Of a stretch of 64,000 nt of DNA, positions 43,306-56,905 are shown in pieces. The stretch comes from Planctomycetota bacterium (GTDB lineage: Bacteria; Planctomycetota; PLA2; JAEUHO01). The translations under genes were made by a program, and so were the position numbers. Every line of letters begins with the position of its first letter. Within the stretch, counting starts at the first letter, position 1. The DNA lies in contig CBDCWP010000040.1 in the NCBI GenBank assembly GCA_965223505.1, positions 174,336 to 238,335 on the forward strand, written 5' to 3'. Under the pieces are notes generated by a model. The model did no database searches, was not told the origin of the DNA, and saw only the letters and a list, made by a program, of their open reading frames with translations.

Positions 43306-43567
43306 GACGTCTCTCTCTTCTTCGAAAGGTCGTTGCCCACCACTACTCACTGCCCGCCGGGAGCGCGGGCGTCCCACGTGTCCGGGACCGCGCTCATCCG
43401 CCATCGAAGGGCGGGACTCTCCATGGGGGGCTTCCCGCGGGTTCGGTCTGCGTCTCAGCATTTCCCTCGAAATGGCAATCCGTCCCGCGCCGAGACTCGT
43501 TGGTCCCACGATCCGCCCGGTCGGCTAGACTCGAAGGGGGCTACGAGGCACGAGAGCGTCGATGCGC

Positions 43568-45667
43568 ATGTCTGCCTCACGAATTGACGACTACCTCGAG
43601 CACACGGAAGCGCTCGAGCGATTGGCCCTGGTACTCGTGCGCGATGCGACCGAGGCCCAGGAGCTCGTCCAAGAGACGTGGTTGGTCGCGCTCATGCATC
43701 CGAACGGGCCGCAGGGCAGCTCCCGGCGGTGGTTGGGCGGCGTGCTTCGCAATCTCGTGCTTCGATCGAGGCGAACGCGTACACGCCGGCTGCGACGTGA
43801 GCGCCGCGCCGCGCGCGCGGAGTCCGTGCCGCCCGGGCAGCGCTACGTAGACGAAGCGGATCTTCACCGCTATCTCGCAACGTGCATCCGCAAGCTCCCG
43901 GCGGACTACCGCCACTTCCTGGAACTTCGGTACTTCAAGGGACTCGCGCCGAAGGAGATCGGCATGCGTCTCGGCGTACCCGCGTCCACCGTACGAACGC
44001 GGGTGCAAAGAGGACTCGAACGCCTGCGCGTCGCGCTCGGAGAGCGGCCGCGCACCAACCTGATCTCGCTGATGCCGTTGCTTCTTGCGATGAAGCCGAA
44101 GCGTGCCTCCACCGCGAGCGCCAACCACGGATACGGTCTCGGCGCGGCGGCCGCGGTTCTGCTCGGTGTCGTGCTCGTGTGCGGGAACGCCGTTCGAAAC
44201 GCCTTGGAAGACACGACCGACTCGGTGAGTGTGGGGTCCGTCGATGCCGTCGATCGCTTGCACGGTGCGGCGCCGCTCGCCGATGCAGCGGCAGCGGCCG
44301 CCGAGGCGACGACCTCGTCCGCTCGCACGGTGTCCACGGCGGATTGGTTCGAAGACGCGCCGGACGGCGCAACGAGCCGGCAACGCCCAGGTGCGCCGGC
44401 GGTGCGAGAGACGGCACCGCGACGGGTCGCCGGACTCGTGGTGAACGAGGACGGCGTCGCAATCCGAGGCGCGACCGTCGCGCTGTTCGGGTGCGGCGAC
44501 GACGGTCCGGCCAAACGACCGCTTGCGATCACGCGCAGCGGGCCGGACGGCCGCTACGAGCTGACGTTCAAGGCCGGCTCGACGATCCTCGTCGTCGCGA
44601 TCCCTGGATACGTCCCGACGGCCAGGCCTCTGACCGCCGGCTCGACCGTGGAACGGCAAATGCTCGTTCGTGGACGTCGGCTCGAGCTATCGCGCGCGTA
44701 CCGCCGAGCGGCCGTTCGGCTCGAAGCGAAGGGACTCGTTCTCGAGCTCGATCGGGAGGAAGCGCAGCTCGCGTGGATCGACGGACGCCCGGCATGGACG
44801 ACTTCGACGCTGGAGCGGGATGCGAGCGGCGCACTCTACGTATCGGGATTGGAGGCGCGCCGGTACGCGGTCGCCGCTGAGCACGAGCACGCGCCTGCGG
44901 TGTTTTGGACGGTCGACCTCGGTGTCGAGACCGTTCCGGCGGTCGCGCAAGAGCCGGTCGCGACGCCGGACCGCGGCGAGGTCGTCGCCGAGCGTTCCGA
45001 GGTGAAGCGCGGCGATGATCGAGCACGTGATGACTGGCGCCGGCCGGCCACACGACGTAGCGAGCCGACGGCGCGCGAAGAACGAACGCGTCGCGACAAG
45101 ACACCGCGGCGCCGCGGGCGGAAGCGAGCACCGACGGCGAGTGGCGCCCGACGTGACGACTCCGCCCGAGGGACCCGTGGCGGCAAGGCAGGCGCACCGG
45201 ATCGACGTGGGCCGTCGTTCGTTGTGTCGAAGCCCACGCACGGCGGAACGGCGTCGCTGGCGCCTTCGCCGCAGCAGCACGAACCGAACCTGTCCACACC
45301 AGCGCCCGTCCACGACGTGGACGATTCGTTCGGGACGGTCATCACCAAGGGCCCCGCGGCGGTCGTTCCCGTGGCGACGCCTTCTCCGGCGGCTTTCGAG
45401 ACGCCGGGGCCGGCGGAGGGCTGGCCGGCGGATCCCGGCGTCCTCGAGCCGACGGAGATGAGTGTCGCGCCGATGGTGATGGAGGTTCAGCCGCTGTCCG
45501 CGGATGCGTACATTCACAAGCCGATCGGCCTCGCGTTGACGGAGAGCGCGCTGCTCTCGCTACCGCCCGGCACGTACCTGGTTCGCGTCTTCACGGCCGA
45601 GCTTCCGCCGCAGGAATACATCGTCGACGTCGGTGTGGAGCACGGCCTGCTGATTCACACCCGCTGA
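43568..45667 (+). CDS. ECF sigma factor with long C-terminal extension (TM plus carboxypeptidase-regulatory-like domain)
   Basis: AQELVQETW, WLGGVLRN, LP..YR..LELRY..GL...EIG..LGVP.STVRTR; VAGLVVNEDG.AI.GATV. Confidence 0.82.
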   Translation: MSASRIDDYLEHTEALERLALVLVRDATEAQELVQETWLVALMHPNGPQGSSRRWLGGVLRNLVLRSRRTRTRRLRRERRAARAESVPPGQRYVDEADLHRYLATCIRKLPADYRHFLELRYFKGLAPKEIGMRLGVPASTVRTRVQRGLERLRVALGERPRTNLISLMPLLLAMKPKRASTASANHGYGLGAAAAVLLGVVLVCGNAVRNALEDTTDSVSVGSVDAVDRLHGAAPLADAAAAAAEATTSSARTVSTADWFEDAPDGATSRQRPGAPAVRETAPRRVAGLVVNEDGVAIRGATVALFGCGDDGPAKRPLAITRSGPDGRYELTFKAGSTILVVAIPGYVPTARPLTAGSTVERQMLVRGRRLELSRAYRRAAVRLEAKGLVLELDREEAQLAWIDGRPAWTTSTLERDASGALYVSGLEARRYAVAAEHEHAPAVFWTVDLGVETVPAVAQEPVATPDRGEVVAERSEVKRGDDRARDDWRRPATRRSEPTAREERTRRDKTPRRRGRKRAPTASGARRDDSARGTRGGKAGAPDRRGPSFVVSKPTHGGTASLAPSPQQHEPNLSTPAPVHDVDDSFGTVITKGPAAVVPVATPSPAAFETPGPAEGWPADPGVLEPTEMSVAPMVMEVQPLSADAYIHKPIGLALTESALLSLPPGTYLVRVFTAELPPQEYIVDVGVEHGLLIHTR

Positions 45668-45822: not shown

Positions 45823-46302
45823 TCAAGCAGTGCCACGCCCCCTGCGCGCCGCGCGGAAGAACGCCTTCAGAATCCCGCCGCACTCCTCGGATAGCACCCC
45901 CGAGACGACCTCCGGACGGTGATTCAACCGCGCATCCGCCAACACGTTCGCGAGACTGCCCGCCGCGCCGGCCTTCGGGTCCAGCGCGCCGAAGACGACC
46001 GTGCTCAAGCGCGCGTTCACGATCGCGCCCGCGCACATGAAGCAAGGCTCCAGCGTCACGTACAGCGTGCAGCCGATCAGACGCCAGTCCTTCAGCAGCG
46101 TCGCCGCGTGCTTGATGGCGAGCATCTCGGCGTGCCCCGTGGGGTCCTTCTCGATCTCGCGCGTGTTGTGCGCCCGCGCGATCACCTGGCCGTTGCGCAC
46201 GATCACCGCCCCCACCGGCACCTCGCCGATGTCGGCTGCTTGGCGCGCTTCTTCCAGCGCCTCGCGCATGTAGCGCTCGTGACCGTTCAAGGAAGGGGTC
46301 AT
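45823..46302 (-). CDS. tadA: tRNA adenosine(34) deaminase
   Basis: GEVPVGAV, HAE, TLEPCFMC, DPKAGA. Confidence 0.94.
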   Translation of the reverse strand: MTPSLNGHERYMREALEEARQAADIGEVPVGAVIVRNGQVIARAHNTREIEKDPTGHAEMLAIKHAATLLKDWRLIGCTLYVTLEPCFMCAGAIVNARLSTVVFGALDPKAGAAGSLANVLADARLNHRPEVVSGVLSEECGGILKAFFRAARRGRGTA

Positions 46303-46307
46303 GCCGG

Positions 46308-46814
46308 CTATTTCGCGCGCTCTTTCGCACGCTCCAGATGGCGATCGCGCCGATCGCACTGCTGCTTCTCACGCCACGTGTCGCACTTCACGAACAACGT
46401 CAGCGAGTGATCCTTCATCGTGAAGCCGTGATCGCGCACGACCTCCTCCTGGAGCCGCTCGATCTCGTCGTTCGTGAACTCCACGACCGCCTTGCAGTCG
46501 ACACAAATCATGTGGTCGTGGTGCTCGCGATCCAGCGCCCTCTCGTAGCGACGCTGGCCGTCGGCGAAGTCGTGCCCGTCGAGCATCTCCGCTTCTTCGA
46601 GCAGCGCGAGCCCACGGTACACCGTCGCCATCGAAACCGACTCGCCTTCGCTGTTGAGGCGCCGGTACAGGTCCTCCGCGGAGAAGTGCCCGCGTTGATC
46701 GAGCGCGGTGCGGATCATGGTCCGCCGCTGCTCGGTCATCTTGAGACGCTTCTCGCGCAGGAAGTCCTCGAAGGACTTCAGGGCATCTTCGACGGCGGCC
46801 GCGCTCAAGCTCAC
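46308..46814 (-). CDS. fur: Fur family transcriptional regulator
   Basis: T.QR, HFSAE, ATVYR, HHDHMICVDC..VVEF. Confidence 0.9.
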   Translation of the reverse strand: MSLSAAAVEDALKSFEDFLREKRLKMTEQRRTMIRTALDQRGHFSAEDLYRRLNSEGESVSMATVYRGLALLEEAEMLDGHDFADGQRRYERALDREHHDHMICVDCKAVVEFTNDEIERLQEEVVRDHGFTMKDHSLTLFVKCDTWREKQQCDRRDRHLERAKERAK

Positions 46815-47675: not shown

Positions 47676-48956
47676 CTAGGCCTTCACGCCCCTGGCGCCG
47701 ATGTCGCGGCGGTGGAAAGCCCCTTCGAAGTCGATCTTGTCGACCGCCGCGTACGCGCGGTCGCGCGCGCCGTCGAAGCTGTCGCCCAGGGCCGTCACGC
47801 ACAGCACGCGCCCGCCCGCCGTGGTCACGACGCCGTCCTTCTCGCGCGTCCCGGCGTGATAGACGATCACGTCGTCCATCGCGTCGGCGGCGTCCAGACC
47901 GCGGATCTCCTTGCCCGCCTGGTACCCGCCCGGGTAGCCGGCCGACGCCACGACCACCCCCACCGCGGAGCGCTCGTCGATCTCTACGTCGGCGACGTCC
48001 CTGAGCTTGCCGTCCGCGGCCGCCATCAGCAGCGCCCCCAGATCGCTCTTGATGCGCGGGAGCACGACCTGCGTCTCCGGATCGCCGAAGCGCGCGTTGT
48101 ACTCGAGCACCCGAGGGCCTCCGCGCGTGATCATCAGCCCGGCGAAGAGCGTTCCCCGGTACTCGACGCCCTCGCGCTTCAGGCCGTGAAGCGTCGGGAC
48201 GAGGATCGTCTTGATGATCTTGTCGAGCATCGCACCTTCGGCGACGGGCGCCGGGCTGTAGGCACCCATGCCGCCGGTGTTGGGCCCCGTGTCGCCTTCG
48301 CCGACACGCTTGTGGTCCTGTGCGGTCGGCAATACGACCAACGTCTCGCCGTCGGTGATCGCGTGCACCGAGGCCTCTTCGCCGCGCAAGAAGTCCTCGA
48401 TCACGACCTTGTCGCCGGCATCACCGAACCGCTTGTTGACCATCGCGTCTTCGAGGGCCGCGACGGCATCCTCGACGCTCTCGCAGATCGTCACGCCCTT
48501 GCCGGCTGCCAGGCCGTCGGCCTTCACGACGATCGGGAGATGGTCCCTCTGCTCGACATGCTCCTTCGCTTCGGCGAAGTCCGTGAACACGTGCGCGCCC
48601 GCGCACGGAACGTTGTTGCGGCTCATCAGATCGTGAAAGAAGGACTTGCTGCCTTCGAGCTGCGCAGCCTCCTTCGTCGGTCCGTAGATCTTCAGCCCTT
48701 GCTCGTTGAAGTAGTCCACGATGCCCGCGACGAGCGGCACCTCGGGACCGACCACCGTCAGGTCGATGGCTTCGTCCTTCGCGAAGCGGGCCAACCCCTC
48801 GAAGTCGCTCACGAGGAGGTGCGGAACGCAATGCGCGTCGGCGGCGATCCCTCCGTTTCCGGGCGCGCAATAGACGCGTTCGACGCTCTTGCTTCGAGCC
48901 AGGGCAACACAAAGCGCGTGCTCGCGGCCACCGCCGCCGACAACCAGGACCTTCAC
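47676..48956 (-). CDS. purD: Phosphoribosylamine--glycine ligase
   Basis: GGGGREHA, VGPE.PL, LEGSK, KADGLAAGKGV, QDHKR, NTGGMGAY, EYNARFGDPE; GTG start after AAGGAG. Confidence 0.97.
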   Translation of the reverse strand: MKVLVVGGGGREHALCVALARSKSVERVYCAPGNGGIAADAHCVPHLLVSDFEGLARFAKDEAIDLTVVGPEVPLVAGIVDYFNEQGLKIYGPTKEAAQLEGSKSFFHDLMSRNNVPCAGAHVFTDFAEAKEHVEQRDHLPIVVKADGLAAGKGVTICESVEDAVAALEDAMVNKRFGDAGDKVVIEDFLRGEEASVHAITDGETLVVLPTAQDHKRVGEGDTGPNTGGMGAYSPAPVAEGAMLDKIIKTILVPTLHGLKREGVEYRGTLFAGLMITRGGPRVLEYNARFGDPETQVVLPRIKSDLGALLMAAADGKLRDVADVEIDERSAVGVVVASAGYPGGYQAGKEIRGLDAADAMDDVIVYHAGTREKDGVVTTAGGRVLCVTALGDSFDGARDRAYAAVDKIDFEGAFHRRDIGARGVKA

Positions 48957-49359
48957 GTCGGATCTCCTTTGATTCGGTGCTGCTCTACCACACTGCCGCC
49001 GTCGCACGCACGCGCAAACAAGGGGCTGACAGGTTCCGGCCGAGCCGCGCCGGTCGCGGCTCTCGCGACGCGCCTCGAACCGCCCCGAATCAGGCCCTTC
49101 AACGGCCCTGTGATGAAACGGTGACACTCCGAACCGCTTTCCCAGGTGCCCCTGGAGAGGCCGTCTAGGGCTCCTAGAGCCCCAATTCAGGGCCCAGGGC
49201 GGGATTCGAGAGGTTGTGGACGGGGACCTGGGGATTCGTCCGGGCTGCCTTGGCCCGAATGAGTGCTCAGGTTAGTCTCCCGAAGGCCGACGAATTTCGA
49301 CGGCAAACAGTTTCGACCCGGCGCCGCGGGTGCGGGTCCATAGGGAGGATATCGATCTC

Positions 49360-49584
49360 ATGAAGAAGATCGTTGCGATCGTCGCGCTCGTGGGCTTCTG
49401 CAGCCTGCTCGGCGCTTGTTCGAACTTGCTGGGTTGCGGCTGCGAGCCGGATCCGTGCTGCGAGCCCGTCTACCAGAGCCCCTGCTGCCCCGCTCCGAGC
49501 GGTGGTATCGCGGGCACGCCCGCCAGCGGTGGCGGCGGTGGTGGCGGCGGCAGCTGCGGCGGCGGCAGCGGCTGCGGCGGCTAG
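49360..49584 (+). CDS. Small cysteine-rich lipoprotein 1 (74 aa)
   Basis: RBS GGAGG; MKKIVAIVALVGFCSLLGA-C lipobox; DPCC and SPCC motifs; Gly/Cys tail. Confidence 0.85.
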   Translation: MKKIVAIVALVGFCSLLGACSNLLGCGCEPDPCCEPVYQSPCCPAPSGGIAGTPASGGGGGGGGSCGGGSGCGG

Positions 49585-49660
49585 CCAACTCTGCCGGTTC
49601 GGTTGAGCCGGCCTACAGCCGACCGTGAAGGCCCCGGCAGGGGGGCCTGACAGTCAGCAG

Positions 49661-49693
49661 GGCGTGGTGCGGTTTTCCGCATCACGCCTTTTT
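49661..49693 (+). terminator. Intrinsic terminator
   Basis: GGCGTGGTGCGG-TTTT-CCGCATCACGCC-TTTTT. Confidence 0.8.
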
Positions 49694-49870
49694 CAATTGC
49701 GCTCGTGCCGGGCTCCCCCATCGAACGGCATTCCCAACCGGTCCATTGGCCCTGCCGATGCACAAGATGATTTGCAGCGCCTGCATCGATGCACTACATT
49801 TGAGGCGTCGCGGGATGGCCGCGATACGAGGTCGCGGCAATCCGGCCGCACCCGGGTAGGAGACATACAG

Positions 49871-50023
49871 ATGAAGCGACTCAGCGTTGCACTCTTGACG
49901 CTGGTTCTGGCCGCCGGCTTCCTCGCCGGCTGCTGCTGCGATGACCCCTGTGCGCCGGACGATCCCTGCGCTGCGCCCGCTGACAGCGGTGGCGGCGGCA
50001 GCTGCGGCGGCGGCAAGGGCTGA
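49871..50023 (+). CDS. Small cysteine-rich lipoprotein 2 (50 aa)
   Basis: RBS AGGAG; FLAG-CCCDDPCAPDDPC... Confidence 0.87.
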   Translation: MKRLSVALLTLVLAAGFLAGCCCDDPCAPDDPCAAPADSGGGGSCGGGKG

Positions 50024-50112
50024 GGCTAGTTGCCTCGCCGGCTCGTGTAGCCGGCATCAAGAACCAGCCGTAAAAGACAACCCCTCTTCGTGAGGGCATT
50101 GGTAGTTCGCGA

Positions 50113-50148
50113 GGGCGGTGCGGGATTCCCGCACCGCCCTTTCCTTTT
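50113..50148 (+). terminator. Intrinsic terminator
   Basis: GGGCGGTGCGGG-ATT-CCCGCACCGCCC-TTTCCTTTT. Confidence 0.8.
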
Positions 50149-50362
50149 GCCGATACGTAGGACGTCAATCATCGTAAACGCCGAACAGGAATGGACATAG
50201 GACCCTAGAACGAAGGCGGCGTTGATTGCGATGGCGCAGTGATTGACCTATCTTCTTCGCTCCACTGCGGGTGTTTCGCAGCGGCAAGAGGAAGCGGCGA
50301 CGGCGTCGCACCACCCATCATTTCGGCTCCGCACCTCGCGCGGGGACCGGGTAGGAGAAACG

Positions 50363-50551
50363 ATGAAGCGTCTTGGATTCGCGGTTTTGACGCTGGTGCT
50401 GGCTGCCGGCCTGTTTGCCGGTTGCTGCTGTGACGACCCCTGCGCGCCGGACCCGTGCGCTGCGCCGGCCTCGGCGCCCGCCGATGCCGGCGGCGGCGGC
50501 GGCAGCTGTGGCGGTGGCGGCGGCTGCGGCGGCGGCAAGGGGTGCGGCTAG
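50363..50551 (+). CDS. Small cysteine-rich lipoprotein 3 (62 aa)
   Basis: RBS AGGAG; LFAG-CCCDDPCAPDPC... Confidence 0.87.
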   Translation: MKRLGFAVLTLVLAAGLFAGCCCDDPCAPDPCAAPASAPADAGGGGGSCGGGGGCGGGKGCG

Positions 50552-50587
50552 CGCACCGGGTTCCGTTTGGAACGCAATGAGTAGGCG

Positions 50588-50622
50588 ATGGGCGTCGCGC
50601 TTCGTGCGCGGCGCCCATTTTT
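50588..50622 (+). terminator. Intrinsic terminator
   Basis: ATGGGCGTCGCGC-TTCGT-GCGCGGCGCCCAT-TTTT. Confidence 0.8.
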
Positions 50623-50798
50623 CATTGCCTGTTTTCGTGTTCTTTCGGGGTTCGACACAGAAGTGTTGTTTCCGCGAAATGGATACCTACGATGTCTGCG
50701 CTCGTGGGAGGGGTTTCTACGGGCTCCTCGAGACGTCGAGGGCAGGTTTAACGCCGCGGGGAAACACCCCAACGCGATTCGATCCTTTAGGAGCGCAT

Positions 50799-50918
50799 AT
50801 GCGTAAGTTCGCAACCCTTTTGATTCTTGCCGTTCTCGCGTTCGGCGTCGCCGGCTGCTGCTGCGACGATCCGTGCGATCCGTGCGCTGAGCCGGATCCG
50901 TGCGACCCCTGCGGTTAG
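50799..50918 (+). CDS. Small cysteine-rich lipoprotein 4 (39 aa)
   Basis: RBS AGGAG; GVAG-CCCDDPCDPCAEPDPCDPCG. Confidence 0.87.
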   Translation: MRKFATLLILAVLAFGVAGCCCDDPCDPCAEPDPCDPCG

Positions 50919-50971
50919 TCGCGGAACGGTAGGACGACGTTCGCGCATCGGCGTGGCGTCGTACAAAACGG

Positions 50972-51006
50972 AAACGCGGGTGGGCTTCGGCTCACCCGCG
51001 TTTTTT
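50972..51006 (+). terminator. Intrinsic terminator
   Basis: CGCGGGTGGGC-TTCG-GCTCACCCGCG-TTTTTT. Confidence 0.85.
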
Positions 51007-51184
51007 CGTTGATAGGTGGGCTCCTCCAGGGAACCGTGGGCCATCGATTGCGCCCTGACATCGGCTGCATAGGATGACCGGCACTCGTTGGGAGGGATTC
51101 TCTACGGGTCTCTCGTCGAGACGTCGATGAGAGGTTTTCGCCGACGGTGTGGAATGCGCCGGCGGTGCACTTCAAAAGGAGCGC

Positions 51185-51331
51185 ATGATGCGTAAGTTCG
51201 GAACTCTTCTTCTCTTGGCAGTTCTCTCGTTCGGTATCGCCGGTTGCTGCGGCTGGGATCCTTGCTGCGATCCCTGTGACCCGTGCTGCAACCCGGATCC
51301 CTGTGATCCCTGCGATCCCTGCGCGAAGTAG
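51185..51331 (+). CDS. Small cysteine-rich lipoprotein 5 (48 aa)
   Basis: RBS AAGGAG; GIAG-CCGWDPCCDPCDPCCNPDPCDPCDPCAK. Confidence 0.87.
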   Translation: MMRKFGTLLLLAVLSFGIAGCCGWDPCCDPCDPCCNPDPCDPCDPCAK

Positions 51332-51377
51332 CTCGCTGCAGAGAAGACGCGCAGGACGTCCTGCGCACCCCATCGAA

Positions 51378-51411
51378 GCGCGGAGTGGGCGAGTGCCTGC
51401 TCCGCGTTTTT
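51378..51411 (+). terminator. Intrinsic terminator
   Basis: CGCGGAGTGGGC-GAGT-GCCTGCTCCGCG-TTTTT. Confidence 0.8.
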
Positions 51412-51496
51412 CAATTTCGAAGCGAACGCTAAGAACGCCTCGGGATGCTCGGTCGTCGCGCGTTGGGCGACGAAGAACCACATCGAGGAGCGAGGC

Positions 51497-51622
51497 ATGC
51501 GAAGGCTAGGGACTCTCATCTTGTTGGCGATCGTGTCGATCGGGATCGCGGGATGTTGCGGCTGGGATCCGTGTGATCCGTTCGGCTGCGACGACGACTG
51601 TTGCGATCCCTGCGACGAGTAG
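51497..51622 (+). CDS. Small cysteine-rich lipoprotein 6 (41 aa; absent from the ORF track)
   Basis: RBS GAGGAG; hand translation MRRLGTLILLAIVSIGIAG-CCGWDPCDPFGCDDDCCDPCDE*. Confidence 0.85.
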   Translation: MRRLGTLILLAIVSIGIAGCCGWDPCDPFGCDDDCCDPCDE

Positions 51623-51898
51623 GGACGAAAGACGGCGCGGAGTGAGCGAGAGGCCCTCTCCGCGCCGCGGCGAGTCGCGCACGCAGAACGTCTTCGACGT
51701 GCTGTGTCGGGGCGCTAGATGCCGATGAAGGGACGCGGGGTGGGTCGCGCCGAATTGCGTGCGTCGGGTGCACCCAGGCCGAACGCCCTTTGTCATGCAG
51801 GACTGGAGTCGCGGCACGCGGCGCGGGTCGCCGTTGCGGCCGTCACTCGACCGCACGCCGTCTGCCTTTGCGGCTGCCCTATGGGCGACCAGTTGCAT

Positions 51899-51947
51899 GT
51901 AGGGGCAGCCCTTGTGGCTGCCCTTGGGCGACCACGAGGGTCGCCCC
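51899..51947. repeat. GTAG-type REP doublet
   Basis: GTAGGGGCAGCCCTTGTGGCTGCCC-TT-GGGCGACCACGAGGGTCGCCCC. Confidence 0.88.
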
Positions 51948-51956
51948 GCTAGCGGG

Positions 51957-52148
51957 TTAGGGCCAGCTCGACATGCTCCAGCCGCGTCGCAGGAGGAGTC
52001 GTGTGGCGGCATAGGCCAGAAGCAGCAGCATGGCGGCCCGTACGACCCATGGGTTGAGCTTCTCCGCCGTGCTCTCCCTGTCACAGCGGTGGCCGCCCAG
52101 ACCGCGATGCCGCATCTTGATTCGTTTCTTGCACTTGCTGCACTTCAT
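51957..52148 (-). CDS. Small protein (CxxC N-terminus plus TM helix) between REP units
   Basis: MKCSKCKK...C...hydrophobic helix; no clear RBS. Confidence 0.45.
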   Translation of the reverse strand: MKCSKCKKRIKMRHRGLGGHRCDRESTAEKLNPWVVRAAMLLLLAYAATRLLLRRGWSMSSWP

Positions 52149-52228
52149 GAGGCGAACCAATTCTAGTTCGCCAACCAGCGGACTGGATCCACGAGGCCGC
52201 GCATCTCCGACTCGTGTTTCCGGGCCAT

Positions 52229-52296
52229 GGGCGACCACGAGGGTCGCCCCTACAGCGGTCACGCGACCGCGTTTGCCGGTTGCATGTAGGGGCGAC
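52229..52296. repeat. REP unit plus truncated REP
   Basis: GGGCGACCACGAGGGTCGCCCCTAC (52229-52253) and GTAGGGGCGAC (52286-52296). Confidence 0.8.
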
Positions 52297-52873
52297 GCAG
52301 CTGTACACCAAGCGCGGGATCCAGTGGCTTCGCGAGCAGCGACTGGGTGATGAGAACCAGGATCTGGCGCTGCAGTCGCTGGTGGATGTCGTTGCGGCTC
52401 TGCAGGAGCGCATCGAGAAGCTCACCGCTCGAATCCGCGAGTTGGCCGAGCAGGACGAAGTCTCAGGCTGGATCGTTCCGGCGCGAGATCTCCTGGGCGT
52501 CGCGTCGATCCGTCTTCTTGCCCTGCTTCTTCAGATCGAGCTTCGTGGCGTCCACCACAAGCATCTCCAAACCCGCTTCGCGGCAGGCCAGCACGAACCA
52601 GCGGTTGCAGCCCAACGCTTCCACCGCGAAGCGCCCGCCTCCGTAGGTGCCAAGAAACGCAACCAGCGCCGCGGCCGCCTTTCGATCCGGCAGGCGCCAC
52701 CGCCGCTCCTCTTCGATCTCGCCCTTCGCATCACGGACGCAGATTTGGGCGACACTCTTGTGCAGGTCGATTCCGACGTGGTATGCAGTCATGGGGTGGC
52801 AGTTCCTTCCTCGGCTGATGCCGTAAACACACTTGGCACGACCGAGGATCAGGGCTGCCACCTCCTATCCCAT
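52297..52873. mobile_element. Rearranged IS110-family remnant
   Basis: Minus-strand DEDD N-terminus (52463-52792); plus-strand fragment resembling the central helical region (about 52297-52465); structured non-coding end at 52795-52862. Confidence 0.75.
52463..52792 (-). pseudogene. Truncated IS110 recombinase (N-terminal RuvC-like DEDD domain only)
   Basis: VGIDLHK, AVEA, KKTDRRDA, then a premature stop. Confidence 0.85.
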
Positions 52874-52996: not shown

Positions 52997-54446
52997 CATC
53001 GCCGTCAACTTAAGGAGGCCCCCGCGGGGCACCTGGTGGTGGCGGCAGTTCCCTCCATCGTCCCCGCCAGTCCGGCCGGCAGGTGTCGCGGGGTCGGTTG
53101 CCGCGGGTCTTGTCGGCGAGGATCCTCCAAAGTGGCACTTGGAGGCAGCAGGCGTCATGCCAGTCGGGCTTGCGCAGCTTCACTCCGGGGTTGGCGCGCT
53201 CGGTGAGCAAGAACCCCATCTCGAGGGTCACCAGGGTGGCTGAGGTGGCGCCGAGGAGCGGAAAGAGCTTCGCCTCGGAGATGTCTTCCGGCTCGACAGC
53301 AGCTTCGTGCGCGATTCGGCCCTGGGCTATGCGCATCGCGGTGTGCACGATCGCGGACGCATAGAGTTGCATCGCGATCGCGTTCGCGTTGCCGCAGTAG
53401 AAGCGATGGAGGTTGAGTACCTCCTTGAGGTCGTAGAACATGCGCTCGACCTCCCAGCGATCGGCGTACAGCTCTGCGATCTCCGCTGCGGATAGGCGCT
53501 CGGGATCCAGGACGTTGGTTGCGAACTCGTAGGTCTTCTCTCCCAGCGAGAGCCGAATCAGCCGAGCCGCAAGCCTGGCTTGCTTGCCGAACGTGACGGC
53601 TTTGTCCTGGAGCGTGCCCCCGCCGTAGGCGCAACTGCCCAAGTCCTCCTGCACCTCCACATGAGCATGTCGCTGGCGCCGAAACACCCCGTAAAGGCTA
53701 GCTTCTTGGGCTTCTGAGAGAAACTTCGGTGTTCCGTACAGACGGTCCCCGAGAACCAGGCTGCCCTTGGGAAGCTGCCCGAGCACCTCGCGAGCGGAAA
53801 TCAGCTCGCCTTTCTTCAACGTATGGGAGTAGCGCAGATCGGCCAGGCTGCCTCGCATGAGGTCGTAGCACGCGAGCATCGAACCGGGGATCGGCGTTGC
53901 CGTATCCTCCCACGTGATCTTCAAACGCCGCGCTACGGGATCGAGGTTCGAGCCATCCAGGATCAGGATGCGGTCGAAGCGCTCAGCAACATCCTGGTGG
54001 CGTTGGGCAAACCGAGCCGGCTCCGAAGAGCTCACACTCTCAACGAAGGCCCGAAACACCTTCGCGAAGAACTCCCATCGCAGGTTGCCACAGCGCTGGA
54101 AGAACGCCTGGTTGGAGGTTTCCACCGGCGGGTATCCGGACGACCGATCCCCAGCCGCCTCTCGAAGCGCTTGGCTGAGCGACTCAGGCGCCCGCAAGAT
54201 CACAGCTGTCCAGAACGCCACCATCTGTTGCAGCGTCCAGACGCGCTCGCGCTCGCCATCTCGGAGATCCTCGAACGCAGCCGCCACCAGCGACCCGTTC
54301 AGGTGCTCATGGAGCAGCTCGGCCACGCAGACGAGATCGACTTGATCATCTCGATTGGCCTTCGCCACCGCGCCCTCCTCACCTGAGGGATCGGAGTTGA
54401 ATCAGGCCAGAATTAGCGCAACCAGCGGCCTAAATTGACGGCGATG
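52997..54446 (-). mobile_element. IS4-family insertion sequence (IS231-like ends), 1450 bp
   Basis: Terminal inverted repeats CATCGCCGTCAA(C/T)TTA; 11-bp direct repeat GGGCCATGCCC at 52986-52996 and 54447-54457. Confidence 0.9.
53010..54368 (-). CDS. IS4-family DDE transposase
   Basis: LDGS, GDRLY, Y..RW.VE..F..LK (YREK) motifs. Confidence 0.92.
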   Translation of the reverse strand: MAKANRDDQVDLVCVAELLHEHLNGSLVAAAFEDLRDGERERVWTLQQMVAFWTAVILRAPESLSQALREAAGDRSSGYPPVETSNQAFFQRCGNLRWEFFAKVFRAFVESVSSSEPARFAQRHQDVAERFDRILILDGSNLDPVARRLKITWEDTATPIPGSMLACYDLMRGSLADLRYSHTLKKGELISAREVLGQLPKGSLVLGDRLYGTPKFLSEAQEASLYGVFRRQRHAHVEVQEDLGSCAYGGGTLQDKAVTFGKQARLAARLIRLSLGEKTYEFATNVLDPERLSAAEIAELYADRWEVERMFYDLKEVLNLHRFYCGNANAIAMQLYASAIVHTAMRIAQGRIAHEAAVEPEDISEAKLFPLLGATSATLVTLEMGFLLTERANPGVKLRKPDWHDACCLQVPLWRILADKTRGNRPRDTCRPDWRGRWRELPPPPGAPRGPP

Positions 54447-54908: not shown

Positions 54909-56717
54909 CTATCCGCCCGTCGTCGGACCGCCCGCTCCACTCCCAGGCCTCGGGCCCGGTGGTGGCGGCGCGCTCGGCCGCGGTGGCTTGGGCTTCGGTT
55001 TCGGCTCGCGCTTCCGATCGCCCTCTCCGTCCTTCGGATTCGTCTCGGGACGGCGACGCTCAGGCTCCTGCTCGACGATGCGCACGTTCTTGCTGAACGA
55101 CAGCAGATGCCCCTTCTGCAAGCACAGCGCCCACGGCGTACGCGGGAACTTCCGCGCCAGACGCTGCTGCGCCAACATCACCTCGGCGAACCGCGCGTTG
55201 CGCTCCTCCGACTTCAGATCCACCCTTCGGCGCGGGAGCGCGACACCTGCCGCGATCGGACCGGGGCGGATCTGCACCTCGCGGTACGTGACGTCCAGCT
55301 CGGTGATCGTGTCGAGCGCGGACAGCGCCTCGTACCAGTGGAACTGCACCTTCTTGAGCTGCACGCCGAGGAACTGGAAGTCGGCCTCGAGACGCTCCTT
55401 GAGCGGATCCTCGCCGGCCTTCTCCTCGCGCTCACGCCCGTTGGCGGTGCTCCACCACTTGAGCGCCTCCTCGACCATCTTGATCCGGCTCTTGCAGAGC
55501 TCCTTCGCCTCGCGCACCTCGTCGAGGTCCGTGTACCACTGCCGCGGGTTCGCCGTCGAACGCAACGGACGCGCCGGCCGCGGCTGCAAACTCGCACCGC
55601 GCCGCTCCAACGTCCCCAGCGTCCCGATGATCGGCGTCGCCTCGTTGGCCAGATGCTGCCAGATTCGAACGATGGCATGCGCGCGCCAGTCCTTGTTCAG
55701 CGACTTCAGGATCTTCGAACGCGGTCTGAGGTCGGGCGCAACCATCGCGAGCCGCGTGTAGTCGTAAAGCGACTTGCGCTTTCGCTGTTGGCGTTTGTTG
55801 AGCGCCGCCTGGGCGAAGTCGAACACGAAGTAGCGACCGCCCGAGGAGTACGCCAGCGTGGCGAGCGACCAATAGCCGTAGCCCGAGGGCACCGGATACT
55901 TCGGCGGGCGAACCCAGTAGAACTCGGTCTGCGCGAGATCGAACTCCCAACGGTACGGCACCAACCCGAACGCGGTGTCGCCGCCCATGTAGAGCGCGTT
56001 CTTCGTCTTCTTGCGCGGCAGCGGGTTGTAGCGCTCCGAAAGACCCGCGGCCTCGAGCCCGGGTCGCGGCTCATAGTCCTGGATCCAGCAGCGTTCGAAC
56101 GCCGACTCGCCGGCGATGCAGTAGAACGCCGCCTCGCTGTCGAGGACGGCGTCGCGCGTCGCCTCGACGTCGTCCTCGCCCTCGCCGCCCTCCTCCGAGA
56201 CGAACAGCATCGCCTTCGGACCGCCGTTCACCTTGCGCAGCAGCTTGGCGGCGCCGCGGATCTCCGCGTGGACGTTCTTCGGGCCGTCGAGCGGGAGGAA
56301 CGACAGGGCGCTCAGCGCGCTGTTCGAGTCCGTCGGCAGACGCGAGGGCTCGGCGTACTCCTGGGCGCCGACGCCGTAGACGCCGATGCGCATGCCCTTG
56401 GGGCCTTCGCTCCAGGCCACCTCGAGCCCGCTGCGAAGCTCCGCGATCTCGTTCTTCATCGAGGTCGTCGGATCGACGACGAGCAGCAGGACGGCCGGCG
56501 GTTGCTTGGTGTCCGCCTCCCAGCGCGCCTTCAGGTCGCGCGCCACGTAGGCCATGCACTCGTGGATCGAGGGCTTGCGCTCGAAGATCTCGCCGGGCGT
56601 CCTGGCCTCGTTCGAGACCTCGGCGGCGGCTGTCTGAAGCGCCCGGTCCGTTCCGGCCAACGGCAGGAGCAGCAAGACCAAGACGGCCGCTCGGAGAGGG
56701 CTCGAGAAGAAACGCAT
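54909..56717 (-). CDS. Secreted protein with VWA-like domain
   Basis: Signal peptide; LLVVDPTTSM (MIDAS-like); Pro-rich tail. Confidence 0.65.
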   Translation of the reverse strand: MRFFSSPLRAAVLVLLLLPLAGTDRALQTAAAEVSNEARTPGEIFERKPSIHECMAYVARDLKARWEADTKQPPAVLLLVVDPTTSMKNEIAELRSGLEVAWSEGPKGMRIGVYGVGAQEYAEPSRLPTDSNSALSALSFLPLDGPKNVHAEIRGAAKLLRKVNGGPKAMLFVSEEGGEGEDDVEATRDAVLDSEAAFYCIAGESAFERCWIQDYEPRPGLEAAGLSERYNPLPRKKTKNALYMGGDTAFGLVPYRWEFDLAQTEFYWVRPPKYPVPSGYGYWSLATLAYSSGGRYFVFDFAQAALNKRQQRKRKSLYDYTRLAMVAPDLRPRSKILKSLNKDWRAHAIVRIWQHLANEATPIIGTLGTLERRGASLQPRPARPLRSTANPRQWYTDLDEVREAKELCKSRIKMVEEALKWWSTANGREREEKAGEDPLKERLEADFQFLGVQLKKVQFHWYEALSALDTITELDVTYREVQIRPGPIAAGVALPRRRVDLKSEERNARFAEVMLAQQRLARKFPRTPWALCLQKGHLLSFSKNVRIVEQEPERRRPETNPKDGEGDRKREPKPKPKPPRPSAPPPPGPRPGSGAGGPTTGG

Positions 56718-56905
56718 GCCGTTCCTCAATCTACACCGGGAGCACCCGCCCGGGACGCCAATCGCCTCGTCGGCTTGAACCCCGACCGGCCCCATGGGAT
56801 GCGGTACCGGCGGCGGCGGCCGGGGATTCGTCCGCGAGCGCGTTCCGACGTAGTTCGCGGCTTCGTGGCGCGAGTCTCGCGGCACGGACCCGTATCATTT
56901 GCCGC

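Follow-up and report, generated by a model that had tools for sequence, protein, structure and literature searches.

In chlamydiae, the gene omcB adjoins omcA. The Cys-rich YTV proteins of planctomycetes (PF07639) are not known to be lipoproteins. The gene of Braun's lipoprotein Lpp is monocistronic and ends in a strong terminator, and Lpp uses its C-terminal lysine as the point of attachment to peptidoglycan. Metallothioneins are recognized in sequence by their small size, a Cys content of ~15–30% or more arranged as CC, CxC and CxxC, the absence of His and the scarcity of aromatic residues. One source describes OmcA as a small Cys-rich lipoprotein of a structure-giving, disulfide-cross-linked envelope complex (PMC2811131). 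Another reports that planctomycete walls contain Cys-rich proteins, the YTV proteins having come from cell-wall preparations (PMC8567305), and a third describes SoxY, whose C-terminal GGCGG holds the Cys to which the sulfur substrate is bound (PMC6067878). The locus presented here shares some traits with each of these systems and differs from it in others. It lies in a 64,000-nucleotide stretch of DNA (hereafter the window) from a Planctomycetota bacterium (assembly GCA_965223505.1, contig CBDCWP010000040.1, positions 174,336 to 238,335) and consists of an array of six very small genes, g1 to g6, for Cys-rich lipoprotein precursors. On sequence grounds, they represent an undescribed protein family of one uncultured planctomycete family-level lineage, and the array is probably part of the cell envelope.

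The six genes are co-oriented on the + strand, have 39–74 codons and are spread over 2.4 kb, as established by reading the sequence and the open reading frame (ORF) listing between 48,800 and 52,200 (Table 1). All six are preceded by a ribosome site of the GGAGG/AGGAG type, 5–10 nucleotides (nt) 5' of the ATG, and all six leaders run from a K/R-rich start through a hydrophobic stretch to a lipobox ending in Cys (L-G-A-C, L-A-G-C, F-A-G-C, V-A-G-C, I-A-G-C and I-A-G-C for g1 to g6). The pattern used for Sec export and signal peptidase II cleavage (Sec/SPII) was a basic n-region, a hydrophobic h-region and a lipobox [LVI][ASTVI][GAS]-C ~18–22 residues from the start. It describes all six window peptides and all homologues from a lipobox-based scan; the deviations in the window are F at −3 in g3 and the L-G-A-C of g1. 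The lipobox rule also fits 31 of the 31 matches of a paralogue profile, and the Pfam lipoprotein-anchor family LPAM_1 (PF08139) matched the 48 peptides searched below threshold only. The processing enzymes Lgt (PF01790, E 3e-59) and LspA, the signal peptidase II (PF01252, E 8.5e-32), are encoded in the window's genome (G000; 5.15 Mb, 67% GC, 92% complete). After cleavage, the mature parts would have 20–55 amino acids (aa) with 6–10 Cys. An initial annotation made from the letters of the window had given the same account of gene number, orientation, lengths, ribosome sites, leaders, lipoboxes and Cys content, and the motifs it quoted are present in the peptides. Its remark that the ORF listing misrepresents the locus is likewise accurate, as g6 is unlisted at the default 60-aa cut and g1 to g5 are listed from upstream GTG/TTG codons. 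In the protein collection that was searched, g6 (P0102) and g2 do appear as called proteins, g2 with a near-identical relative (P0088).

Table 1. Features of the array and its neighbours (positions in the window; for the genes g1 to g6, without and with the stop codon)
Feature	Position	Strand	Description
purD	47676..48958	-	phosphoribosylglycinamide synthetase; GARS_N/A/C domains, E 8e-76; divergent neighbour marking the conserved locus
Promoter candidate of g1	49250..49278	+	sigma-70-like, TTGGCC-17 nt-TAGTCT; putative, read from the letters
g1	49360-49581; 49360..49584	+	putative founding member, 74-aa lipoprotein precursor; mature part with Cys cluster, PVYQSPCCPAPS core, Gly-rich spacer and SCGGGSGCGG tip
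Terminator 3' of g1	49659..49690	+	intrinsic; 14-bp stem + U-tract, -28.3 kcal/mol, z -4.5
g2	49871-50020; 49871..50023	+	50-aa lipoprotein precursor; CCCDDPCAPDDPC, then GGGGSCGGGKG tail
Terminator 3' of g2	50111..50141	+	intrinsic; z -6.4
g3	50363-50548; 50363..50551	+	62-aa lipoprotein precursor; CCCDDPCAPDPC, Ala/Pro spacer, GGGGGSCGGGGGCGGGKGCG tail
Terminator 3' of g3	50587..50619	+	intrinsic; z -5.7
g4	50799-50915; 50799..50918	+	39-aa lipoprotein precursor; mature part CCCDDPCDPCAEPDPCDPCG
Terminator 3' of g4	50967..51010	+	intrinsic; -30.6 kcal/mol, z -4.8, then UUUUUU
g5	51188-51328; 51188..51331	+	lipoprotein precursor of 47 aa, or 48 aa if begun at 51185 (ATG); near-pure DPC repeats, C-terminal Lys
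Terminator 3' of g5	51375..51410	+	intrinsic; z -4.0
g6	51497-51619; 51497..51622	+	41-aa lipoprotein precursor; mature part CCGWDPCDPFGCDDDCCDPCDE
Hairpin 3' of g6	51634..51666	+	no U-tract; z -2.0; weak terminator candidate
VWA-like gene	54912..56885	-	658-aa conserved protein; weak VWA_2 match, E 0.04; convergent with the array

That these are genes rather than chance reading frames follows from three kinds of evidence. A lipobox/Cys scan of fetched loci recovered homologues with the same layout of ribosome site, leader and lipobox from relatives, amounting to 46 distinct homologous mature peptides. Pairwise comparison of 15 g1 orthologues gave a proportion of nonsynonymous differences (pN) below that of synonymous ones (pS) in 101 of 105 pairs (median pS 0.52, pN 0.34), and g1 is thus under purifying selection; its invariant residues are written with varied synonymous codons (AGC/TCG for Ser, CCC/CCG/CCT for Pro). 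Finally, a long GC-rich hairpin with a U-tract stands ~40–75 nt 3' of five of the six genes, with fold z values of −4.0 to −6.4. Because these five end in this way, the six genes would most simply each form a single-gene transcription unit of their own. Assembled contigs from four sequencing runs bear on the presence of the array only. One low-depth contig of a second study covers g4 and has no coding differences, its seven listed differences all lying 3' of the stop, and is too thin to weigh; the GGC-rich stretch at 50,488–50,536 draws unrelated contigs.

Upstream of g1, the pattern TTGG..N17..TAnnnT of the candidate promoter is conserved across an alignment of 16 orthologous upstream regions, and a simple promoter scan found nothing. 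An Rfam scan of 48,900–52,300 by E-value returned noise only. Some other elements of the non-coding sequence may be recorded here. A direct repeat GTGA(T/C)-N6-GTGAC with 11-nt spacing occupies 49,110–49,128 between purD and g1, ~230 nt 5' of g1. Of 16 orthologous loci in the alignment, 14 have it at the matching place, and it could act on either purD or g1 as an operator or a promoter element. Just 5' of the g1 ribosome site, at 49,310–49,345, lies a GC-rich, hairpin-like GACCC...GGGTC whose sequence is kept across genera. RNAalifold on 15 g1 leaders gave four pairs with zero compensatory change, so the element is unproven as a structure. The leaders of g4 and g5 share a duplicated segment with the palindrome CCTCGA-GACG-TCGAGG (50,726–50,741 and 51,113–51,132).

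The most conserved part of the family is the PVYxSPCCPAPS core of g1, which is invariant in 10 orthologues and, with at least 90% conservation, nearly so in a set of 83 sequences. The invariant residues other than Cys are P, V, Y, S, P, P, A, P and S. Around this core, the layout is that of an anchor, a Cys cluster, a spacer and a tip. Four Cys stand between the lipid-bearing Cys and the core in 51 of 78 members, and 9–59 residues follow the PCC as a variable Ala/Pro spacer. Two Cys come after the core in 40 of 78 members and none in 18, and 57 of 81 sequences terminate in C-G(-G) plus 0–2 residues. The remaining genes appear to be fast-evolving paralogues built from (D/N)PC units, with g1 as the conserved founder. 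Among the paralogues, several types can be told apart: CC(C)DDPC followed by an Ala/Pro spacer and GGGGSCGGGK, as in g2 and g3; CS(S/W)LCCDPCxEDCC; CCCxLFCxIPxCDPC ending in APAAK; and runs of the hexapeptide NQPNPC.

Pro and Cys each make up 20% of the 46 mature peptides, Ala 14% and Gly 13%, with 0.0% His and ~2.6% aromatic residues (Y, W, F); individual peptides are acidic and reach Cys contents of ~20–36%. Successive Cys most often stand 3 (CxxC, owing to the D/N-P-C units), 1 (CC), 4 or 6 positions apart. The number of free Cys is even in 23 of the 46 peptides and odd in the other 23. An excess of GAT codons in the DPC repeats was considered as a trait of the array and discarded, being a genome-wide effect of Asp before Pro: GAT makes up 17% of Asp codons in the genome overall and 52% when the next codon is Pro, against 54% in the array. 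The density of GATC sites in the array equals the genome mean.

The distribution of the family is narrow. A g1 profile retrieved 82 proteins at E<=0.01 from a protein collection of 5.8 billion clusters, and 17 clusters at E<=0.001 in an exhaustive search of 1.84 billion cluster representatives. The 82 matches hold no Pfam domain; their source names are "hypothetical protein" with a single "uncharacterized membrane protein YgcG", and the two organism names among them are Planctomycetota/Planctomycetia metagenome-assembled genomes (MAGs). In species-representative genomes, all 16 g1 loci come from Planctomycetota MAGs. In a phylum-wide sample, the g1 profile matched one place per genome in the window's own genome and in 13 of 16 sampled from its family; the 384 genomes sampled from other planctomycete families gave 0 matches. 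The three unmatched genomes of the family form one genus; the two of them that were examined each carry a diverged single gene beside purD, in whose product a lipobox and a Cys cluster accompany xVYK(K/R)PCC, an Ala/Pro spacer and KACGAGKCG as the tip. No cultured organism is among the matches. The paralogue profile found 31 database proteins with no name beyond "hypothetical protein", and the single one with an organism name is again from a Planctomycetota MAG. A pattern of three (D/N)PC repeats occurs in 8 of 401 genomes, four of them in other families, where none of the matches is a small lipoprotein. No accepted match to curated families was obtained with Pfam (48 peptides), NCBIfam (the six window peptides) or the PDB (g1 and paralogue profiles); NCBIfam gave leader-driven matches below threshold, and the PDB sequence searches gave leader-driven noise. 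Full-text literature searches turned up no description of such peptides among the papers listed.

The setting of the array is conserved as well. The link to purD, which the initial annotation had raised, holds in 8 of the 11 loci scanned (window counted), where purD lies divergent 5' of the array; its start in the window can be placed near 48,955 from the VKVLVVGGGG motif. Where the sequence reaches far enough downstream (15 distinct genomes), the orthologue of g1 precedes 1–5 further co-oriented small genes for Cys-rich (D/N)PC-repeat lipoproteins, and tandem sets in relatives are also what a profile of the six peptides brings up. Array size ranges from one to six genes across genera, and the number of repeats varies in frame. 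On the 3' side, a conserved protein of ~600–680 aa is encoded convergently in six loci including the window, whose copy is 46–59% identical to the five others and gives at best a weak VWA_2 match. This gene directly adjoins the array in relatives, whereas in the window two transposase genes intervene, an IS110-type fragment (52,466–52,861) and a DDE_Tnp_1 transposase (53,013–54,368), both on the − strand. Upstream of purD, genes for a deaminase (MafB19/dCMP_cyt_deam type, probably tadA-like by sequence) and a Fur-family regulator occupy 45,826–46,814 on the − strand. Both genes are kept in three further loci (L015, L019 and L022; the deaminase match is confirmed in L019 and L022 only), so the order of genes around the array is stable between genera. 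The scan of long neighbouring ORFs in the 11 loci showed no metal-homeostasis gene and no maturase, in line with the initial annotation, which had seen no maturase next to the array.

The reading preferred here, with a probability of about 0.4, is that the genes encode envelope peptides anchored by a lipid and cross-linking through disulfides, in which an Ala/Pro spacer is combined with a conserved Gly-Cys(-Lys) tip. Each gene would give a Sec/SPII lipoprotein precursor, which Lgt and LspA would process to the short mature peptide, held at the membrane by its lipidated N-terminal Cys. The probable location is the periplasmic face of the outer membrane, because the residue at +2 is Ser or Cys and never Asp; over the 46 mature peptides it is Ser, Cys or Asn in 40 and Asp in none. 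The peptides would be structural envelope components, presumably abundant, and periplasmic thiol oxidation would introduce disulfides within and between them, the genome encoding a homologue of VKOR, a type of oxidase active in periplasmic disulfide formation. Bonds between molecules are possible because half of the peptides have an odd count of free Cys. The outcome would be a lipid-anchored, cross-linked, proline-stiffened layer, in which the tips may serve as attachment points to other envelope components. The nearly invariant non-Cys residues of g1 suggest a specific interaction rather than a mere thiol sponge, an anchor followed by an Ala/Pro spacer of variable length and a conserved tip is a layout that suits a tether, and structural surface proteins typically vary in how many repeats and genes they have. 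The lack of metal or maturase genes among the neighbouring ORFs scanned in the 11 loci and the presence of the oxidase also favour this structural role.

Among described systems, OmcA/CrpA (PF03503, Chlam_OMP3), a small, very Cys-rich lipoprotein of the Planctomycetes-Verrucomicrobia-Chlamydiae (PVC) group, is the closest functional analogue of such a layer. The functional analogy is a reasonable one, in which the array would resemble the OmcA layer of chlamydiae through convergence rather than shared descent. The differences are that the array peptides are based on Pro/Asp/Asn repeats, are shorter, come from an array of monocistronic genes, occur in one planctomycete family and have no OmcB partner above the model's cut-off. 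With the YTV proteins, the likeness is that of Cys-rich planctomycete proteins. YTV proteins are, however, much larger multi-repeat proteins (~390–890 aa, judged by the open frames that hold the matches), and no PF07639 match occurs in the array peptides, in the window's genome or in 16 genomes of its family, while all of the 20 genomes examined from a different planctomycete family (20 of 20) have YTV.

Several observations weigh against a disulfide-linked envelope layer. AlphaFold2 modelled g1 from 83 sequences with a leader helix only, at a mean predicted local distance difference test (pLDDT) score of 52.7 and below 50 in the mature part, so that no fold supports any role. The outer-membrane location borrows the +2 rule of E. 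coli, which may not be that of Planctomycetes. The composition would satisfy the definition of a metallothionein equally well. Restriction to a single lineage means that the family cannot be a component of planctomycete walls in general. Nor do the YTV proteins help, as they were not found in this lineage nor in most other families. For the latter reason, the idea that the array replaces YTV proteins was dropped as uninformative: most families are without both, and no argument from replacement can be made.

The main rival, which we consider unlikely but clearly ahead of the other alternatives, is that the products are lipid-anchored metallothionein-like peptides whose reduced CxxC, CC and CxC thiolates bind Cu(I), Zn, Cd or Hg or scavenge oxidants and electrophiles, thereby buffering the periplasm. 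The Cys and aromatic contents, the lack of His and the Cys spacings given above are those of classical metallothioneins, including bacterial SmtA-type proteins and fungal Cu-metallothioneins, and a mature part that is predicted to be unstructured resembles an apo-metallothionein. The odd Cys counts and the Fur-family gene 2.5 kb away, syntenic in the window and three further loci, point in the same direction. The Fur regulator was nevertheless rejected as a specific partner of the array, since it belongs to a general local order of deaminase, fur and purD, and no exporter, metal sensor or chaperone gene was found among the neighbouring ORFs scanned. Metallothioneins are cytosolic, whereas these peptides are predicted to be exported and lipid-anchored, and exported Cys-rich peptides are expected to be oxidized in a cell with a VKOR oxidase. 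They are also Pro-rich, match no metallothionein family of Pfam at E<=1 (48 peptides), and in g1 keep many residues other than Cys. A different use of the same anchored layout, which we regard as improbable, would be an Lpp-like covalent tether with a lipid anchor in the outer membrane, a Pro/Ala-rich span and a C-terminal Lys cross-linked to peptidoglycan by a YkuD-type L,D-transpeptidase. About as doubtful is the extended proposal that the array supplies the missing outer-membrane tether of its lineage as a non-helical Braun-type lipoprotein. A disulfide-stapled, polyproline-like rod of (D/N)PC and Ala-Pro units would then set the periplasmic distance, the Gly-Cys-Lys tip would be bound to peptidoglycan through Lys (by YkuD) or to wall proteins through Cys, and gene number and spacer length would tune the spacing of the envelope. 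The argument for a tether lies in the lysines: 21 of the 29 in the 46 mature peptides fall within the last six positions, 15 of 31 database paralogues end in Lys as compared with 271 of 3085 (8.8%) long ORFs of the window's genome, and all 10 recovered members of the CxxLFCxIPxCDPC subfamily do so after an Ala/Pro spacer. YkuD domains and penicillin-binding-protein transpeptidases are encoded, so peptidoglycan is probably present, and small monocistronic genes with strong terminators are what would be expected from lpp. In addition, one study detected no known outer-membrane tether in Planctomycetes (bioRxiv 10.1101/2021.05.31.446380). Terminal Lys is far from universal, however. In the window, only g5 ends in it; in g2 and g3 a Lys stands 2–4 residues before the end, with none in g1, g4 and g6. 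Only 8 of 81 g1-family members end in Lys, and whole genera (loci L023, L025 and L027) mostly end in Gly-Tyr. The peptides differ further from Lpp in being Cys- and Pro-rich with no helix predicted by AlphaFold2 beyond the leader; there is no coiled coil and no match to Pfam LPP (PF04728) at E<=1 among the 48 peptides. Elsewhere, the genome encodes two peptidoglycan-binding domains of the OmpA type, and the extreme Cys content is left unexplained by a tether.

The other alternatives carry far less weight. The initial annotation had proposed an expanded OmcA-like family in a PVC relative, and descent of the array peptides, as true but highly diverged homologues, from an OmcA of the PVC ancestor is now very improbable. 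Both sets are small Cys-rich lipoproteins of the PVC group, and g3 weakly matches PF03503 (E 0.011, 16.4 bits, residues 20–52 on model positions 14–46). That match is the only one among 48 peptides, stays under the 25-bit cut-off and sits in low-complexity Cys/Pro sequence. Genome-wide, the best PF03503 match has E 0.124, and, of 14 control genomes that are unrelated, 6 also yield matches to the model at E<=10, all of them below the cut-off. An OmcB partner, suggested together with the family name, did not emerge: no peptide or genome match to PF03504 exceeds its cut-off, the best in the genome reaching 15.6 bits (34.1 needed) on another contig. Profile searches of 5.8 billion proteins retrieved no protein named OmcA. 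The g1 family, moreover, is confined to one family-level planctomycete lineage and is not PVC-wide, which fits a lineage-specific invention. Inherited homology with OmcA is thus unsupported, given the single sub-threshold match, the missing OmcB and the narrow phyletic range. Equally little credence can be given to the idea that the peptides are thiol carrier arms, in which the Gly-flanked tip Cys would carry persulfide sulfur or other thiol-bound cargo like the GGCGG tip of SoxY. The end of g1, ...SGCGG, does set a Cys between glycines at the very C-terminus of a putatively periplasmic protein, as in SoxY, and most of the g1 family shares the C-G(-G) ending. This resemblance is a motif of 4–5 residues, and there is no SoxY fold or domain, no SoxZ partner and no Sox or other sulfur-enzyme gene among the neighbouring ORFs scanned; moreover, 18 of 78 g1-family members lack any Cys after the core. 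Least probable of all is that the products are secreted or modified peptide precursors, akin to bacteriocins or to ribosomally synthesized and post-translationally modified peptides (RiPPs), with a leader that serves export only. Small, Cys-rich products with multiple paralogues would be expected in such a case, but the lipobox is canonical in all six window peptides and all 31 paralogue matches, and the locus is stable, chromosomal and placed beside purD. Unlike RiPP precursor loci, the array has purD and the VWA-like protein as its neighbours, and no maturase, protease, ABC exporter or other transporter, or immunity gene was found among the long neighbouring ORFs of the 11 loci.

A few observations from the same genome and its relatives stand apart from these questions. 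Two further small Cys-rich lipoprotein genes occur in the window's genome, on contig C11 (~56,690–56,900, +) and contig C26 (~154,170–154,300, +). One of the two is divergent to a secretin gene and beside a gene for an FG-GAP protein, and a role of its product as a pilotin is a possibility; the other lies 3' of a gene for a CarboxypepD_reg protein. In a genus with a single g1-like gene, the motif PCDPCDPC is found inside a frame of at least 742 aa that is open at the 5' end of the locus (L051; genome G006, contig C5, − strand). Within the window, at 43,562–45,664 (+), a 701-aa protein combines N-terminal sigma-70 regions 2 and 4 of the extracytoplasmic function (ECF) type with a CarboxypepD_reg-like domain, an unusual, long sigma-factor fusion.

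For the planctomycete envelope, older work found proteinaceous walls rich in Cys and Pro, peptidoglycan was found later, and the assembly of the whole is unsettled. The importance of the present family is limited by its restriction to one uncultured lineage. It also illustrates that genes of 39–50 codons, easily missed or mis-started in GC-rich genomes, can form conserved systems. Its products are concrete candidates for an envelope layer that is cross-linked by disulfides or tethered covalently; otherwise they may be the first metallothionein-like peptides with a lipid anchor. If the tether should prove true, it would be the first candidate of its kind in a phylum in which one study detected none of the known systems.

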